A DNA stretch of 64,000 nucleotides from an uncultured archaeon (GCA_964342815.1 CAYFHS010000001.1:32001-96000); one strand, 5' to 3'. Counted from the stretch's first letter, positions 50,366 to 58,668 are shown. Translations and numbers: made by a program. The notes: generated by a model from the letters alone, not told the origin.

Positions 50366-53221
50366 GTGAATCCTGGTGACCCCCATGATGACGGGACCGA
50401 TAGAGCTGTCGAGGTGGAACCCCTCACCCCAAAACACAATAGAGCGGTTGGAAAGATCGACGGATACCTTGATACTGCTCTGTCTAGGTTTATGGGGAGG
50501 GCGAGAAATTCCCAGGAAAAATATCAAGAGGTCGCCCCGAAGATAAAAACGAAGGTGGCGGGGGTGGCAAAGGAGGGTGCGGACATATTAAGATCCCTGG
50601 ACAAAAAAGGGGACGAGATGTCCGGCAGGATAAAGGTATCCAAATTCACCGATTGGTTTCTCACTCCCCTGCTGAACCATCCCAGGATCCCTCTTATGGT
50701 GATCATCTTTATTGTTTTAATAGCCAGCATGGGTATACTGAACATCAGAGGGAACATACGGGGCGATATGGAAGTTTATCTTCCTTTGGACGAGGAGATC
50801 ACTGACGTTATTGAAGAGGTAAGGGAAGATTGGACAATCGACATACTGATGTTGTACGTGGAAACTAACAATGTGAAGGACCGTACCGACGAGACCAACA
50901 TCACCGACATCAATGTATTGAAGGAAATGTCCGAGATAGAGGAAACGTTGAACCACCAGAGAGGTGACAAAGGGGTGAACGATACCGTACTTTTCGTCTT
51001 ATCGCTATCAACGCTGGTAAAGGAATTGAACTCAACCCCATCAAGACTCACCAATGCCATTCTCGACGAGTTACTTCCACCCGAGATCGATAATCCGGAG
51101 TACCGATTATTACCCGGAGAATATGCTATTCCCAACAGCCAGGATACGGTTGACTCCATGTTTACCCAGATACCGTCCGAATCATTGTCCGCAATGGTGG
51201 CTGATACCAATGGTGACGGAACGTTTGATTCAGCCATCATCATCATAGGCATGGCAAAGGACGTTGACCAAGCCGATTTCATGAAAAAGGTCGAGGGAGC
51301 CATCGGTGACCTGTCCTTCTGCGAAATAACGGCAACGGGACCCATTCCCATGACCCAGGTGGTCACCGAGAGAACCTATGAAGAAATGACCAGGGTGTTA
51401 CCCATTTCCATTCTGCTGATAGCTTTCTCGCTTTTTTTGTTTCACCGGAACTGGAAGATACTGATCATCGAAGGCGTTCCGCTGATCTCGGAGCTTATCA
51501 TCACCTTCGGCGTCATAGGAGCGCTGAACCTGGACCTCACACCCCAGGTAGTGCTCGTGGCTCCCATCATCGCCGCGCTGGGGGTGGCCAACGGCCTCTA
51601 TATTACGAACAAATACATGGAAGAATCCCACATAAAGGACGAAAAACTCCGAATGAGGGTGACGATCCACGGCACTGCCCGACCCATCCTTTTGGCAGCG
51701 GCTACCACCTCCTTTGGATTTGCATCACTGATGACCATAAACATGCTGCCCATGAAGGTATTGGGATTCGGCCTTGCCTTTGGTATTGTGGTCGATTACA
51801 TCGTGACCTTCCTTACAGTACCTGCACTCATTAGGCTGTTAAAATATGAGAAGAAGACGAAGGTGGACAAGGAAGGATGGCTATCCCGGCTTCCCGTGAA
51901 CCATTCGAAGAAGATACTTCTCGTGGTGGGCATTCTGGTTTTTTCCTCCATTGTCATGATATGGTATCCAGGAGTGGAGGCAAACATGGACTACATGGCC
52001 ATGTCGCCCCAGGACGAGCCAGTGATACTGAAGATGGAGGACTACACGGAGAAATTCGGCGGTGGGCAGATAAACATGTTCTTGGTAAGGGGAAGGCCTG
52101 GGGTGGATGATAACTACGATGAAAAGACGGATCAGTTTGAGGCTAGGTACAGTTTGAAGGATGTTGAATTGTTGGACAACCTGGATTATCTCCAGGTTCA
52201 GATAAACGGCAATCCCAACAAACCCGAGGACCTTGGTATTGAGAATTCGGTATCCATAGGTATAACCGATATAATGAAAGCCATCCAGATGCCCAATATC
52301 ACCGATATCGACCAGATCGAGGATCTATTTGAAAGCGTCCCGGTACTGGAAGAGTTGTTTTATAGTTATTTTAACGAAAATTATACTTTCTGGGAGCTTC
52401 TGCATAATACTAATATCGACGAACAGAGACAAACCCAGCTTTTGAACGTATTTTACAATACCATAACCTACGAGATGCGCGGAATGCTGGTGAACGACGA
52501 TTATTCCCGGACTCTTGTATACGTAACCATGCCGAATATGGACACGGTGGATACGGAAAAGGCTGTGAACCAGGTGGATGATGCACTAAAGAAGTACCCG
52601 GTGGGGGACTCGACTTCCGTCCTCACGGGTTTTGGTCCAATTGTTGTAACAGTGAACAACCTTCTTGTGGAGAGCAGTCTTATCAGTACCGTGATGGCTA
52701 TACTAGTGGTGTTCACGTTGCTTGTGATCGCCTTTAGGTCTTTTAAATATTCTCTTATCACCGTCATCCCGGTGATATTCGTGGTGCTGCTCCAGCCCAT
52801 TACTTTCTATTACATAAGATATATCGGTGCTGCTTTCAACTGGGAGTTCACAGGCGTACTGAACCTTTTCACCGCTATGATAGGTGCCATCATCATAGGA
52901 TTGGGAATTGATTTTGCCATTCATATGACCGAGACCATACGGGAAAAGGGGACAACCATATATGCGGTAAAGAGCGGTGTGACCACAACGGGAAGAAGTT
53001 TTCTCGAGACCACCATAACCATGATAATGGGTATCTCGGCTGTGTTACTAGTGAATATTGTTTCCATACGCGAGTTCATTTTTCTGATAGCGATCCTACT
53101 TTTCTACTCTATGGTGGGTGGTCTGGTCATTCTGCCCAGCCTGTTCACATATTATATAAGAAGCCGGACGGAGTCGGCTGAAAGGAAGGAAGCTGCCAGA
53201 CGGGAAGAAAAAGCTGCTTGA
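50366..53221 (+). CDS. RND/MMPL family transporter
   Basis: 12-TM pattern, LGVANGLY and LGIDFAIH motifs; GTG start with AGGTG SD. Confidence 0.88.
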   Translation: MNPGDPHDDGTDRAVEVEPLTPKHNRAVGKIDGYLDTALSRFMGRARNSQEKYQEVAPKIKTKVAGVAKEGADILRSLDKKGDEMSGRIKVSKFTDWFLTPLLNHPRIPLMVIIFIVLIASMGILNIRGNIRGDMEVYLPLDEEITDVIEEVREDWTIDILMLYVETNNVKDRTDETNITDINVLKEMSEIEETLNHQRGDKGVNDTVLFVLSLSTLVKELNSTPSRLTNAILDELLPPEIDNPEYRLLPGEYAIPNSQDTVDSMFTQIPSESLSAMVADTNGDGTFDSAIIIIGMAKDVDQADFMKKVEGAIGDLSFCEITATGPIPMTQVVTERTYEEMTRVLPISILLIAFSLFLFHRNWKILIIEGVPLISELIITFGVIGALNLDLTPQVVLVAPIIAALGVANGLYITNKYMEESHIKDEKLRMRVTIHGTARPILLAAATTSFGFASLMTINMLPMKVLGFGLAFGIVVDYIVTFLTVPALIRLLKYEKKTKVDKEGWLSRLPVNHSKKILLVVGILVFSSIVMIWYPGVEANMDYMAMSPQDEPVILKMEDYTEKFGGGQINMFLVRGRPGVDDNYDEKTDQFEARYSLKDVELLDNLDYLQVQINGNPNKPEDLGIENSVSIGITDIMKAIQMPNITDIDQIEDLFESVPVLEELFYSYFNENYTFWELLHNTNIDEQRQTQLLNVFYNTITYEMRGMLVNDDYSRTLVYVTMPNMDTVDTEKAVNQVDDALKKYPVGDSTSVLTGFGPIVVTVNNLLVESSLISTVMAILVVFTLLVIAFRSFKYSLITVIPVIFVVLLQPITFYYIRYIGAAFNWEFTGVLNLFTAMIGAIIIGLGIDFAIHMTETIREKGTTIYAVKSGVTTTGRSFLETTITMIMGISAVLLVNIVSIREFIFLIAILLFYSMVGGLVILPSLFTYYIRSRTESAERKEAARREEKAA

Positions 53222-53233
53222 GGAAGTATTTAT

Positions 53234-54016
53234 ATGAGGGCTCTAGGGAAATGCATTATAATATCGCTCCTGATCGTTGCTATTGTATTCATGGGGTGTA
53301 CCGGGAATGACGAGAAGCTCAACGATAATGAAAACAATAACGGGAATGGCGACGGCGATATGGATGGGAATGGGAATGTATCACCCCATGCTTCCATGTG
53401 GTTCCCGCGGAGCGCTGTCGTTGGTCAATCGGTCAAGTTCGATGCTTCGAACTCAAGCGATCCGGATGGTGAGATCGTAGAGTTCTTCTGGGATTTTGGC
53501 GATGGCAGCAATGACACGGGAAAGATTGTTTATCACACGTACGAGATTGCTTCCTATATGGGCGTTTCGCTGAGGGTCACCGATGACGACGGGTATGTCG
53601 ATTTCACATCCGATTCCATCAGCATCACGGAAGATGGAACTAATGGAACACAGCTAACGGCGCCCGAAGCTGATCTAAGCTGCAGGAAGATCGAAAAGAT
53701 ACCCGGAATAGTGAAATATTTCATTACCGTCTCCAATGTAACGGGAGATAATACCGAGATAGTCAATATGAACTATTCGATAATTGATGGGGGCAGCAAT
53801 GAAATTCTTTTAAATGGGTCGCTTACTGAAGCAACCCAAAGTTCGGATAACGGCGTGGCTTTTGCTACCTTTGACTACTATCTGAGTGACGGCGACCTTT
53901 TTACCATTTCACCGGAGACCATACCTGGACTGGATGATGGGGATATTTTCCGGATAGATTTTATTCCGAACGGCGACGTGGTGGGCGCCTGCCTGCTTGG
54001 GACCGATGGATTATAA
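53234..54016 (+). CDS. PKD domain lipoprotein
   Basis: Lipobox-like VFMGC; VKFDASNSSDPDGEIVEFFWDFGDG. Confidence 0.8.
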   Translation: MRALGKCIIISLLIVAIVFMGCTGNDEKLNDNENNNGNGDGDMDGNGNVSPHASMWFPRSAVVGQSVKFDASNSSDPDGEIVEFFWDFGDGSNDTGKIVYHTYEIASYMGVSLRVTDDDGYVDFTSDSISITEDGTNGTQLTAPEADLSCRKIEKIPGIVKYFITVSNVTGDNTEIVNMNYSIIDGGSNEILLNGSLTEATQSSDNGVAFATFDYYLSDGDLFTISPETIPGLDDGDIFRIDFIPNGDVVGACLLGTDGL

Positions 54017-54362: not shown

Positions 54363-55613
54363 TCATTTTACCTTTATAGAAAACCGTTCGATATAATCGC
54401 CAAATCTTTTAATTATCTCGTCGCGGTCCAGGCCGAACTGTTCCGGACTGTAGCGATGTTTCCCAGGCTTATCGCCACGGTGTCGCTGAAGATATTCACG
54501 GACTCTCCCGTCGGATTCCTTGTCGTATGGAAGGTTAAAATACCTCTTTATATCAGAGACGGCACGGGGAATGTTCTCAATCAAGGTCTCGAAATTTATG
54601 TCATAGAATCGATCATCTCCCTCAAGCTGGCGGAATTTCATTAGCTCATCTACCCCGGAATGGAATCGGTCCTCCATCATTTCACCCACCAGTTCCGCAT
54701 CGATATGTCCGTAAAAAATTCTCCGCCCGAGCCCCATGAGACTGCAGAAGGAGGCAATGCTGTTCACGGGATTGCGGTGCGACCATACTATGCAGGCATC
54801 CGGAAAGGTCTTGAGTATGAATTTGAGATTCCATATGTGAGATGGACATTTCAGAACGAATCTCTCGGTTGGAGTGACATGGGCCTGGATCTGCAGCATG
54901 CGCTTGTAGTCCTCGAACACCCAGGTTCGGTCCATTGCCATGAGCCATTGGTTCCACTGGTGGAGGCCTGTTGCTATATCCGTGTTCCCCAGGGCCAGGG
55001 TGTTTGCCAGCAGTATCCAGCACTCTTCTACGGAATCTGCCTTTACCTCATGGGCCACAGACATTTCGGGTACTCCAACTCTGATCAGGCGGAGCGGTAG
55101 GTCAACCTTGCGGATACGCAGTTTACGGTCAAGCTCACGGGATTCATGCAGCGGGTACGGTGTTGCAAGTTCCCACAGATACAATGCCCGATAAGCGGGC
55201 CCCAGGGAAAGAACGTTCTGCAAGAGGGTGGTCCCGGTACGGGGGAAACCCACGACGAAAACGGGTGACTCTATGGGGATATTTTCCACATCGGAATTTC
55301 TTCGAATGTAGTCCTCAATGTACAGCCGGTTCATGGCGGTCTTGAGCGCAAGAAAATATATAGCGTAGATCCCGAGGGGAGTTATTTCCGTATTTCGCGC
55401 ATTATCTATCAAGCGGTCGAGAACCTCGACATATTTCTCGTTGCCGAGATCGGTCAATCCCGTTTTCATCCGGGCCCGCTCGAGGATGGAATCCCGGTCG
55501 AGCTCCCAAATTTTCAGCCCCAATTTCTTACCAATGTCCATCAGCATATTAACAAGTTTTACAGAGGGCTGCGCTTCCATACGGTTGACCGTGTAATGCG
55601 GGATCCCGTCCAT
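54363..55613 (-). CDS. Sulfotransferase family protein (Sulfotransfer_3-like)
   Basis: PVFVVGFPRTGTTLL (5'-PSB loop), VLKCPSH, IVWSHRNP..SIAS (3'-PB). Confidence 0.88.
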   Translation of the reverse strand: MDGIPHYTVNRMEAQPSVKLVNMLMDIGKKLGLKIWELDRDSILERARMKTGLTDLGNEKYVEVLDRLIDNARNTEITPLGIYAIYFLALKTAMNRLYIEDYIRRNSDVENIPIESPVFVVGFPRTGTTLLQNVLSLGPAYRALYLWELATPYPLHESRELDRKLRIRKVDLPLRLIRVGVPEMSVAHEVKADSVEECWILLANTLALGNTDIATGLHQWNQWLMAMDRTWVFEDYKRMLQIQAHVTPTERFVLKCPSHIWNLKFILKTFPDACIVWSHRNPVNSIASFCSLMGLGRRIFYGHIDAELVGEMMEDRFHSGVDELMKFRQLEGDDRFYDINFETLIENIPRAVSDIKRYFNLPYDKESDGRVREYLQRHRGDKPGKHRYSPEQFGLDRDEIIKRFGDYIERFSIKVK

Positions 55614-55861
55614 GATGGGGTATTGGAGTAAAATTAGAAAAGAATTTCGGCAGTTACTAAGTACACCTGTGAAACCGATATCCGAAATTATTTATACTAT
55701 TCGATTGTTTATGCGGCAAAATAGATTTTAATCGAATAGATTATTAAAGATTATAATTTAATATTATTGAGTATAAAATAGACAGATTAGACTTGAGCTT
55801 TGAATCAAATCGAATCATTCTATATTATAATATGATTGTTAAATTAGGGAAGTGAGAATGA

Positions 55862-56134
55862 ATGATAATAAGTAAAGTGATCGGAACTCCCACCTCGACA
55901 TTCAAGATAAAGGAGCTAAACGGCAGTAAATTACTGGTCGTTCTACCTTTGAATCCCATGAATATGAGACCCGAGGGAACACCTTTCATCTGCGAGGACA
56001 GGCTGGGAGCCGGGAGGGGTAATCTCGTCCTGATCAGCAGCACCAACCGCAAGGGCAGCCTGGTGGATGCCTGTGTGGTGGGTATACTGGATTCGCTGGA
56101 GATAGAGAACCGGGTGGTCTACGAAACGGAATGA
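55862..56134 (+). CDS. BMC pentamer (vertex) protein, EutN/CcmL family
   Basis: MIISKVIGT..STFK...LNGSKLLVV...D.LGAG.G.LVLI...DACVVGILD matches the EutN/CcmL pattern along its full length. Confidence 0.92.
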   Translation: MIISKVIGTPTSTFKIKELNGSKLLVVLPLNPMNMRPEGTPFICEDRLGAGRGNLVLISSTNRKGSLVDACVVGILDSLEIENRVVYETE

Positions 56135-56317
56135 GCATAAACCGACAGAGCCCTATAATTTTCGATCAAATAATTGGAATAGCTTTCATTTGGATAATCG
56201 AATTATTTCGTAACAAAATGAGATTAGTTGCCTTGCAAAAATAATTACAATCAATTAATATTTGAACTCTTTACGAATCTAAAAAAACAATAATAATAAA
56301 AAACGGACCGGGATAAT

Positions 56318-56857
56318 TTGGTAAGTTTTGGAATAATTGAGATGCGCTCACCCGTCAAGGGATTGAAACTCGTCGCTGAGGTCCAGACCGGAGGCGATGT
56401 GGAGCCCATAATGATAAAGGCGGATGATCCGAAATATTTCATTGTCATATTCCGAGGAAGGCGGGACGAGCTTATTACCGTACTCGACGCGGTTTATAAA
56501 AGCAACGGGCGTGATTACCTAAAAAAGACTATTATACCATCACCTCACCCGGAGCTTTTAGAGGTCCTTCTGCTGAAAGGTACCGGAGAAAACGTGAAGC
56601 ATCTAGGATTGATGGAGATCAATGGTTACGGAGCAATGATGAAATGTGCCGATATTGTTCTGAAGACCCCCGCAATGGCGGTTCTGAGCATTGTTTTCGA
56701 TACTTTGACGGGAACAGGTCAATTAGCCATAGCAGGCGTGGACACGGTTTTTCCGTCGCTGTTCATGGAGATGAGAGGGATCTGCGGCAGCCTGAATATA
56801 CGAAGCGCATCCGTGATCAGCACCCCTGGAAAAAAGATCATAGAGGCAATTTTGTAA
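56318..56857 (+). CDS. Divergent tandem BMC-domain shell protein (BMC-T-like)
   Basis: Two BMC-sized halves: FGIIEM...IIPSPHPELLEVL and LGLMEINGYGAMMKCADIVLK...VISTPGKKIIEAIL; TTG start. Confidence 0.72.
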   Translation: MVSFGIIEMRSPVKGLKLVAEVQTGGDVEPIMIKADDPKYFIVIFRGRRDELITVLDAVYKSNGRDYLKKTIIPSPHPELLEVLLLKGTGENVKHLGLMEINGYGAMMKCADIVLKTPAMAVLSIVFDTLTGTGQLAIAGVDTVFPSLFMEMRGICGSLNIRSASVISTPGKKIIEAIL

Positions 56858-56910
56858 ACGTGGCAGTATTTACGATTAATGATATTGAATAAATGAATAG
56901 AGGTGAATAT

Positions 56911-57570
56911 ATGGCGAACAAGACCATAGGTGTGATAGAGACCGAGGGACTGCTCGATGCGTTCCTGGCGAGCGATGCAATGATCAAAGGGGCAAACGTG
57001 GAATTGACCGCAAGATATCTTCTTGGGGGGGGTGTGGTGACCCTTGTCATTTCCGGTGCTCCCGCGGCTGTAAAATCAGCTATTGATATTACTGAAAAGG
57101 ATTTTATAAATAAGAATATCCGAACTGCCATCATACCGAACATTTCCGGCAAGGTGGCGGAAATCATGCTCTCCACCGGAGAATCGCCGAAGAAACATCC
57201 CTCAAGCCGTGGCGGGATACTTAAAAAACGCGAACGTGAACCGTCAGCAGCACCCAGGGCTGCCCCGGGTCGAGGCAGCAGCGTACCATCCATATTCGAT
57301 ACGAATCTTGGATCGGATGACCATCTCGAAAGTTCATACAAGAAAAGACGCGCTACCGTTGAATCGGAAAAGGACATCAAAAAACGGCAGGCTCTGATAA
57401 TCCAGTATCTGGTGGCCAACAGGCACAACAAGGTATCCATAAGCAATATGGAAAAGGTGATACCAAATGCTTCGAAGGTCACTCTGAGGCGGGACCTGCA
57501 CGAACTGATCGACCAGGGAAAGATCGAGAAGGTGGGTCGGGGCAGGGCCACACATTACAAGATACGCTGA
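56911..57570 (+). CDS. BMC hexamer shell protein fused to a C-terminal winged-helix (DeoR-like) domain
   Basis: IGVIETEGLLDAFLASDAMIKGANVEL...GGGVVTLVISG.PAAVKSA; basic linker; RQALIIQYL...TLRRDLHELIDQGKIEKVGRGRATHY. GAGGTGA SD before ATG 56911. Confidence 0.92.
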   Translation: MANKTIGVIETEGLLDAFLASDAMIKGANVELTARYLLGGGVVTLVISGAPAAVKSAIDITEKDFINKNIRTAIIPNISGKVAEIMLSTGESPKKHPSSRGGILKKREREPSAAPRAAPGRGSSVPSIFDTNLGSDDHLESSYKKRRATVESEKDIKKRQALIIQYLVANRHNKVSISNMEKVIPNASKVTLRRDLHELIDQGKIEKVGRGRATHYKIR

Positions 57571-58668
57571 TCAAAGGCATCTTTCGGCTTTGGTTAGTAC
57601 CACGGGCGAGCCGTCCTCGATCAATATGTCGTCTTCTATTCTGACACCGCCCTTGCCGGGAATATAAATACCCGGTTCAACGGTAAAAACGTGGCCGTTC
57701 TCCATTTTCTTCTTCATATCGAATCTTATACCGTTGGGGGCCTCGTGAACTTCCAGGCCGATACCGTGTCCGGTGGAATGGACAAAGTGTTTACGAAGGT
57801 CCTTTTGGGCGAACAGGTCCCGTATTGATTTGTCGATGACGCCGTAGGGTTCTCCCTTCTTCGCGAGAGCGATCCCATTTTGCTGTCCCTCGAGGACCAG
57901 ATCATAAACCTCTTTCATCTCCCTGCTCGCTTCACCCACTGATATGGTACGCGTACAATCGCTGCAGTAGCCGTTCACGTAAACACCAAAATCGATTATG
58001 ACCAGGTCGCCCTTTCGCAATTTCCGGTCCGTGACGTCATGATGGGAAAAAGCCGATTTCGGCCCGCCTGCCACGATTGTCTCGAAGGAAGTTGTCTGAA
58101 CTCGCGGGTCCTTCCGCAAAAGAGAATTCAGTTCTCTTGCAACATGGCGCTCGGTGACTCCAGGCACCGCCATCTCCCTCAATTCTTCGGCCGCCGTGTC
58201 GGTGATCTTGGTTGCATACTTTATGTAGCCGATCTCGTCTGCGTTCTTTTTAATTCTCATCTCTTCTACGAATCCCGACGTTTCCTGTTTTACTAGACGG
58301 GTGGAAACCCTGGTGTCGGAAACGGCGGTTTTCCACTTCTGCTTCCTGATGAGGTCCTTCAGAACGGCAAGACCTGTCTTCCCGTCCGAGCGTATCCCCG
58401 GGTATGGGGAAAATATCTTCAGTTCATCAACCTCGGCCTCCTCCATTGCGCGGAACTGCTCCAGTGATGAAGTTATTCCGTACATATGTCCGGTCCTGTC
58501 AACAATAACATGGTTCAGGAGCGGAAATGAGGGTATGTGGGCACAGGATAGATATCTCACGTTGCCGGGATTTGTCGCGATAAAAATATCTTTGTCCTTT
58601 TCTTCCAGGTGGTTCTGGATTTTCTGCCAGCGTTCTTCGTAGACCTTCCTTGCTATCTGCTCGTTCAT
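57571..58668 (-). CDS. Xaa-Pro aminopeptidase / prolidase, M24 family
   Basis: IDFGVYVNGYCSDCTRT, HSTGHGIGLEVHE, TVEPGIY, GVRIEDD; start moved to ATG 58668. Confidence 0.92.
   Translation of the reverse strand: MNEQIARKVYEERWQKIQNHLEEKDKDIFIATNPGNVRYLSCAHIPSFPLLNHVIVDRTGHMYGITSSLEQFRAMEEAEVDELKIFSPYPGIRSDGKTGLAVLKDLIRKQKWKTAVSDTRVSTRLVKQETSGFVEEMRIKKNADEIGYIKYATKITDTAAEELREMAVPGVTERHVARELNSLLRKDPRVQTTSFETIVAGGPKSAFSHHDVTDRKLRKGDLVIIDFGVYVNGYCSDCTRTISVGEASREMKEVYDLVLEGQQNGIALAKKGEPYGVIDKSIRDLFAQKDLRKHFVHSTGHGIGLEVHEAPNGIRFDMKKKMENGHVFTVEPGIYIPGKGGVRIEDDILIEDGSPVVLTKAERCL

Follow-up and report, generated by a model that had tools for sequence, protein, structure and literature searches.

A Three-Gene Shell Cassette in an Archaeal Genome

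We analyzed a 64,000-nucleotide stretch of DNA (the window) from a marine archaeon of the phylum Thermoplasmatota, order JASLWR01, and found three co-directional genes for microcompartment shell proteins, in the order BMC-P, BMC-T and BMC-H, with no enzyme gene among them. The last of the three (56911–57570, plus strand; 219 amino acids and a stop codon) codes for a BMC-H domain that is joined through a linker to a winged helix-turn-helix (wHTH) domain. The original prediction of an archaeal host was borne out, and the window contains archaeal genes such as LSm.

The first gene of the cassette (55862–56134, plus strand) codes for a 90-aa vertex pentamer protein of the EutN/CcmL type, matching PF03319 with an E value of 9.8e-16 and 58.5 bits (cut-off 25). 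It is the sole such gene in the assembly and has the same position in the orthologous loci. The second gene (56318–56857, plus strand) codes for a 179-aa BMC-T of the single-layer tandem type, recognized by a Pfam BMC match on its first domain and a PduT-like NCBIfam match. Its AlphaFold2 model contained two BMC repeats (pLDDT 87.8, pTM 0.86) and resembled, according to Foldseek, both BMC-T1 of Haliangium ochraceum (HO) and PduT along the full length with a TM score of about 0.8. Homologs of the cassette BMC-T formed only seven clusters, all from the same clade. A BMC-P and a true BMC-T precede the fusion in five lineages, with identities down to 61%. Downstream of the fusion, the opposite strand carries an M24 peptidase gene and then L37e/LSm, an arrangement kept in every locus examined. 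The upstream neighbors, a 951-aa membrane protein (50366–53221), a PKD-domain protein that begins with what looks like a lipoprotein-type leader (53234–54016) and a sulfotransferase (54363–55613, minus strand), vary between lineages and are therefore not part of the cassette.

The open reading frame containing the fusion gene spans 56893–57570 (plus strand), and an alignment with nine homologs places the start codon at the ATG at 56911 (MANKT...), which is also the start that had been proposed for the gene. The frame is unbroken in all full-length orthologs seen, at identities down to 61%, and on the strength of this continuity the BMC-wHTH fusion is genuine and not an artefact. Mean pairwise identity among the orthologs was 76% for the BMC domain, 83% for the wHTH and 42% for the linker; the wHTH, with 40 of 62 columns invariant, is thus the best-conserved part. 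At the level of sequence conservation, the BMC and wHTH domains are both under purifying selection.

Domain Structure of the Fusion Protein

The BMC-H domain (56926–57171, plus strand), delimited with Pfam, pairwise alignments and Foldseek, matched the Pfam family BMC (PF00936) with an E value of 2.3e-15 and 56.7 bits (cut-off 24.5) at residues 12–83, residue numbers for the Pfam matches being counted from 56893. The AlphaFold2 model, built on the family alignment, gave the domain (pLDDT about 70) a canonical, non-permuted topology, the order of elements being strand-helix-strand-strand-helix-strand-helix. The domain has the beta-alpha-beta-beta-alpha-beta fold and is superposable on solved BMC-H structures: Foldseek aligned it with PduA, EutM, CsoS1A and HO BMC-H at target TM scores of 0.75–0.85 and an rmsd of 1.6–2.2 Å, and VIA-align gave Z scores of 11–13 against solved BMC-H. 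A word-based search for stand-alone close relatives of the domain returned only two fragments, both from the same family.

Tiling of hexamer against hexamer requires an edge triad of Asn, Arg and Lys, which was defined in PduA. Aligned to HO BMC-H and C. difficile EutM, and compared also with the BMC-H from the SPU-type loci of relatives (below), the fusion has kept the Lys, within the edge motif D-A-M-I-K, and the Asn, and its pore loop reads G-G-G. The Arg of canonical IPRPH is replaced by Asn in the fusion (IPNIS) and by His in two orthologs. Two of the three triad residues of PduA are thus present, and with the Arg replaced, flat tiling cannot be taken for granted. In the most divergent ortholog, an Arg stands in place of the edge Lys.

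The linker (57172–57318, plus strand) is the variable part of the protein. Residues 94–142 were disordered in the AlphaFold2 model (pLDDT <50), giving a linker length of about 50 aa, and the composition is basic, with 13 K+R against 7 D+E and a pI of 10.4 at residues 89–150. Within it lies an invariant short motif, VPSIFD (57283–57300, plus strand), which reads VPSLFD in the most divergent ortholog; VPS[IL]FD is found in all copies of the cassette, and the second paralog of the fusion (below) does not have it. From its conservation in the ortholog alignment, we consider the motif to be probably a docking site for some partner. A complex prediction of the linker (residues 94–165, VPSIFD included) with the BMC-T trimer yielded no answer (score 0.00, no controls) and speaks neither for nor against binding.

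The C-terminal part (57319–57567, plus strand) consists of a long charged helix and a DeoR-type wHTH, as identified with Pfam, AlphaFold2 and VIA-align. It matched HTH_DeoR (PF08220) with 24.0 bits (cut-off 21) at residues 165–214, and the AlphaFold2 model placed a long helix at residues 143–175, followed by a helix-helix-helix-strand-strand winged helix with pLDDT >90. The recognition helix reads S-K-V-T-L-R-R-D-L and the wing G-R-G-R-A-T-H-Y. In an exhaustive VIA-align search, residues ~158–225 matched winged helices of the Zalpha, Rrf2/IscR, IclR/TtgV and MarR types as well as archaeal Rpa2-WH, with Z scores of 9–10.7 and an rmsd of 1.0–1.5 Å over 60–65 residues. When 1.84 billion representatives were searched with the last 106 residues, 49 proteins matched; HTH_DeoR is present in 39 of the 47 relatives scanned, and a BMC domain in only two further ones.

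The architecture claimed in the original prediction, a BMC domain joined by a basic, low-complexity linker to a DeoR-like wHTH, was thus found to be correct by Pfam, AlphaFold2 and the fold searches. The claim would have fallen with a C-terminal domain of another kind, and the HTH_DeoR match, the confident model and the fold matches agree that this domain is a winged helix. As judged from its sequence, the wHTH is probably a DNA-binding module that recognizes specific sequences. Its conservation above that of the BMC domain, together with an invariant recognition helix of the DeoR type, fits a sequence-specific regulator. DeoR regulators combine an N-terminal HTH with a C-terminal effector domain that binds sugar phosphates. 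The fusion shares with them the DeoR-type HTH with its T-L-R-R-D-L recognition helix, but its HTH sits at the C terminus and an effector domain (DeoR_C) was not found, on which grounds we rejected a classification as a DeoR regulator by full architecture.

Distribution and a Second Paralog

The fusion family is small, with 11 clusters among 5.8 billion proteins and identities down to 61%. The closest public contig, JASLWR010000022.1 from "Thermoplasmatota archaeon ETNP2_MAG_1", is 91% identical, and DNA of the window stretch occurs in several marine or seawater metagenome studies. A search for the same fusion in other archaea had been suggested as a check. We found fusion and cassette in all four species genomes examined of the order JASLWR01; across 401 genomes sampled from the phylum, seven had any BMC match (E up to 0.001), and the fusion was absent from those outside the order. 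Within this sampling, the cassette is restricted to one archaeal order.

The fusion had also been described as the only hexamer gene. In the 4.35-Mb, 89%-complete assembly, Pfam BMC matches were indeed confined to the cassette locus, but a profile search with the fusion family detected a second BMC-wHTH paralog of 218 aa on another contig (G000:C6:136432–137088; L045:8432–9088), such that the claim holds for the sole Pfam BMC locus and not for the protein family. The paralog aligned with the fusion along its full length at 29% identity (E 2e-24). In the BMC domain, now degenerate, Pfam finds no match and the edge Asp and Lys are lost; the winged helix is intact. It has no shell partners and lies between an SPFH/zinc-ribbon gene and the PdxS gene (pdxS), near MCM and DUF424, in a synteny that is preserved in a genome of the same genus (G077). 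Since the paralog contains the only other close copy of the winged helix in the genome, the two proteins would both derive from one ancestral fusion, and its solitary position and lost edge residues indicate that BMC-wHTH proteins of this clade can exist without shell partners.

A relative of 341 aa (L031:4679–5704, from G083:C3) combines one BMC domain with two DeoR-type winged helices. It is weakly RepL-like by Pfam, and its genomic context is unlike that of the other copies.

An Enzyme-Bearing Microcompartment in Sister Genomes

Three of the four genomes of the order, including the one of the same genus, and one genome of another family contain a full microcompartment locus of the sugar-phosphate (SPU) type (in the sister genomes, L028, at G083:C6:72000–91999; L029, on G077:C119; and L030, on G170:C50). 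The locus comprises genes for a permuted BMC-T, BMC-P, an aldehyde dehydrogenase (AldDH), an RnfC-like flavoprotein and BMC-T; for a BMC-P with a K-rich tail, triosephosphate isomerase (TIM), RpiB and a further BMC-P; and for a canonical 97-aa BMC-H and a DeoC/DERA-type aldolase. In G083, the second BMC-P (L028:11836–12351) has a tail of 76 residues, 28 of them K or R. The 150-kb contig that carries the locus there surrounds it with large genes for PKD and transglutaminase domains, which have 43–48% identical homologs in the genome of the window.

Two sister genomes supplied SPU proteins for a tblastn search, which found no ortholog of the SPU enzymes or shell proteins in the 89%-complete assembly; nothing in it corresponds to the 18-kb contig that bears the SPU locus in the same-genus genome. 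For this absence, a real loss and an unassembled region are indistinguishable. The shell proteins of the cassette are too divergent from the SPU ones of the same genomes for a recent duplication to be called: the identity was 32% for P and 43% over 44 residues for H, and T gave no match. The SPU-type loci are defined by shell P and H together with AldDH and DERA, and the cassette, having no enzymes, does not belong to them. In the three genomes of the four that have both, the cassette resembles a shell-only satellite of the SPU locus. A shell tiled solely by wHTH-bearing hexamers, as originally envisaged, is possible for the assembly studied here but not established, given the second paralog and the ordinary BMC-H of the sister genomes.

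Upstream Region and Transcription

Comparison of the regions upstream of the cassette in five lineages revealed a candidate archaeal promoter at 55683–55696 (plus strand), consisting of a BRE-like CGAAAT and the TATA box TATTTATA. The TATA box, at 55689–55696, is the only 8-mer that all five lineages share upstream of the cassette, and in four of them it lies within a conserved block; in the window it is preceded by the BRE-like element. Taken together, the two elements are probably the promoter of the cassette, with an orientation that we infer from the position of the BRE. The box is located 173 nt upstream of the BMC-P start codon in the window and 173–246 nt across the five lineages, which implies an unusually long leader of about 140–215 nt, with about 140 nt in the window. 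An Rfam scan of 55400–57800 gave nothing meaningful.

The region contains further repeats. Four of the five AATCGAAT boxes of the window are inside about 500 bp upstream of and around the start of the cassette (including 55808–55815 and 56196–56203), among them a perfect inverted repeat, CTATTCGATT (23 nt) AATCGAATAG, at 55697–55739. In four of the five lineages, the region upstream of BMC-P holds a cluster of ATCGAAT boxes. We do not claim ATCGAAT as an operator: its count over the whole window was not above chance, the clustering concerns four lineages of five, and no box was found near the second paralog. A 154-nt marine metatranscriptome contig matches 57159–57310 exactly and is a weak hint that the cassette is transcribed.

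Comparison with Known Systems

EutK had been named as a precedent, and by domain order the analogy is apt: in both proteins, an N-terminal BMC-H is followed by a small, positively charged C-terminal domain of the helix-turn-helix type. EutK proteins were also the nearest neighbors of the fusion by protein-language-model features (score 0.83), which we take as a lead only. The families differ, however, in their C-terminal domain, which is EutK_C (PF16365) in EutK and HTH_DeoR in the fusion; PF16365 gave no match in the fusion at E up to 0.01. The NCBIfam equivalog of EutK (NF012010) scored 36.9 bits against a cut-off of 218, and on residues 11–66 of the BMC part only. EutK is bacterial and encoded in the eut operon, whereas the fusion comes from an archaeal host, contains about 50 disordered basic linker residues with VPSIFD and lies in an enzyme-free P-T-H cassette beside M24 peptidase, LSm and sulfotransferase genes. 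Membership in the EutK family was thus rejected (PF16365 absent, equivalog score below the cut-off, no ethanolamine utilisation operon), and, the C-terminal domains being of different families, the fusion would have arisen independently of EutK, by convergence. Apart from EutK, we found no BMC-H linked to a winged helix in the literature.

In Salmonella, deletion of eutK leaves Eut compartments polar and static, and the positively charged C-terminal domain of EutK has been proposed to bind nucleotides and to act like or with ParB (PMC12487888). The deletion phenotype suggests a positioning role for EutK.

Archaeal microcompartments (AMCs) were described in Hodarchaeales by Du et al. (bioRxiv 2025; PMC12747264). 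The preprint also notes SPU-type operons in the order JASLWR01 (Thermoplasmatota), where a permuted BMC-T is added and one BMC-H gene is "apparently lost," and reports that the K/R-rich disordered tails of Hodarchaeales (Asgard) shell pentamers bind DNA and RNA, for which capture of DNA for deoxyribose-phosphate catabolism was proposed (PMC12747264). The K-rich tail of the second BMC-P in G083 is the equivalent of these tails. The main text of the preprint contains neither "helix-turn-helix" nor "winged" and describes no such fusion or cassette. The SPU-type AMCs occur in the same order as the fusion, and the two have in common the idea of a shell protein with a nucleic-acid-binding appendage; there, however, the vertex pentamer bears a disordered tail, and here the hexamer bears a folded winged helix. 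The AMCs further contain AldDH and DERA, and the cassette, with neither, would be an "incomplete locus" by the rules of the preprint.

Two further comparisons concern the shell genes themselves. The cassette has one gene per shell class, like the minimal shell of H. ochraceum (BMC-H, BMC-T and BMC-P); its BMC-T resembles HO BMC-T1, and its hexamer differs by the DNA-binding-type domain. It consists of shell genes only, as do the shell-only or satellite loci of Sutter et al. (2021; PMC8217296). By the definition given there, one H and one P are enough for a "main locus"; the cassette formally qualifies, but without enzymes.

Possible Functions of the Fusion

The data directly support the architecture of the fusion and the folds of its parts, and they show that both domains are conserved and that the P-T-H cassette is likewise conserved and confined to one order. 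On this basis we favor a reading, to which we give an even chance, in which the fusion is an outward-facing, DNA-binding tile of a shell that either tethers and positions the shell on DNA, as in the proposal for EutK, or captures DNA. The BMC-H domain would form the usual cyclic hexamer and take its place in a shell facet, and the BMC-T trimer and BMC-P vertex pentamer, expected to be co-transcribed with it, would complete the shell; where an SPU microcompartment is present, the tile may enter the SPU shell instead.

The orientation of the tile would follow from published shell structures. The concave side of shell proteins faces outward, the termini of BMC-H are naturally external, and inward-pointing termini require an engineered permutation (Kirst and Kerfeld, PMC6787980). 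The original prediction had called for a structure prediction of the side on which the C terminus exits; the AlphaFold2 fold is non-permuted, which would place the C terminus on the concave outer face. Each hexamer would then show the cytoplasm six flexible, basic linkers of ~50 residues, each tipped by a DeoR-type winged helix, and these arms may bind DNA multivalently. One possible task for them is to fix the shell to the nucleoid or place it there, which is the proposal made for EutK in Salmonella; another, in line with the proposal for the pentamer tails of Asgard archaea, is to supply DNA to a compartment in which deoxyribose phosphate is broken down. By analogy, the presence of an SPU microcompartment and a K-rich BMC-P tail in the same order would favor a coupling of shell and DNA. 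Against a shell tile stand the loss of the edge Arg, the failure to find an SPU locus or cargo enzyme in the assembly and the lone, degenerate paralog.

The same observations count in favor of the strongest rival, which we consider unlikely but worth serious attention: the fusion may be a DNA-binding hexamer of shell ancestry that acts as a transcription factor or nucleoid-associated protein and in which the BMC domain serves oligomerization only and no longer tiles. It would accord with the wHTH being the best-conserved part and with its invariant DeoR-type recognition helix, and with the loss of the edge Arg. The paralog with the degenerate BMC domain stands alone by MCM and PdxS in a position kept in a sister genome, one relative carries two winged helices, no enzyme cargo was found in the assembly, and ATCGAAT boxes lie upstream of the cassette in four of the five lineages. 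The boxes, however, are at chance level over the window, and the TATA box is the only 8-mer common to the five lineages. The cassette copy has, moreover, retained its pore loop along with two edge residues, Lys and Asn, and a free regulator leaves unexplained the vertex pentamer and the well-folded BMC-T upstream of it in every lineage. We know of no role for a vertex pentamer outside closed shells. The constancy of the BMC-P and the well-folded BMC-T as partners argues that the fusion still works in a closed shell.

A combination of the two ideas appears rather improbable. The fusion would be a minor component of the shell whose wHTH represses or activates microcompartment genes, with incorporation into the shell titrating it off the DNA, such that shell assembly would feed back on transcription. 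This would unite the features that speak for a tile with those that speak for a regulator, and it would suit the conserved promoter and the long leader of about 140–215 nt with its repeated boxes; separate shell loci are also thought to permit separate regulation (PMC8217296). Yet no shared operator emerged when the cassette was compared with the second paralog and with the scanned regions of the SPU locus, the SPU locus to be regulated was not found in the assembly, and the idea is purely inferential. Packaging of DNA or RNA inside a capsid-like particle with luminal winged helices, one of the roles originally proposed, would draw on the union of a basic linker and a nucleic-acid-binding fold in one protein and on the complete P, T and H set without enzymes, but it is disfavored to the point of being hardly credible by the non-permuted BMC topology, by the external termini of such hexamers in known shells (PMC6787980) and by a stable M24 peptidase/L37e/LSm synteny with no packaging, replication or mobile-element genes nearby.

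Implications

Microcompartment shells were long regarded as purely bacterial. Those of archaea have been reported only recently, in a preprint (PMC12747264), and the same order being covered there lowers the surprise of the present finding, as does the ordinary hexamer that is likely in the sister genomes. New are an archaeal design like that of EutK but invented independently, in which a shell hexamer is joined to a domain of the DNA-binding type; an enzyme-free P-T-H cassette that is lineage-specific; and a small paralog family that is apparently drifting from shell tile to free DNA-binding hexamer.

If the fusion is indeed a DNA-binding shell tile, the three-gene system would be a compact test case for the positioning and inheritance of microcompartments and also for shell–DNA contact in the service of nutrition, as proposed for Asgard archaea, and the fusion would be an off-the-shelf module for tethering synthetic shells to DNA. 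A bolder version, which we think unlikely, has the cassette build an autonomous, enzyme-free polyhedral shell with six sequence-specific winged helices per hexamer, a scaffold for DNA organization or segregation that stays attached to the chromosome and is no metabolic organelle, with the second paralog on its way to a soluble hexameric transcription factor.

Sequence Variants at the Locus

In one lineage (L006:9391–10657), the BMC-T gene shares 11 nt with the fusion gene, an overlap that points to coupled translation of the two shell proteins. The codons of the GGG pore loop form a run of eight G in the window (57025–57032), and one contig of the metagenome run X3 has nine G at this place, by which the frame would shift. 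Orthologs carry four to five G there, and since the run is not conserved among them, the nine-G variant probably reflects an error in assembly or sequencing and not phase variation.
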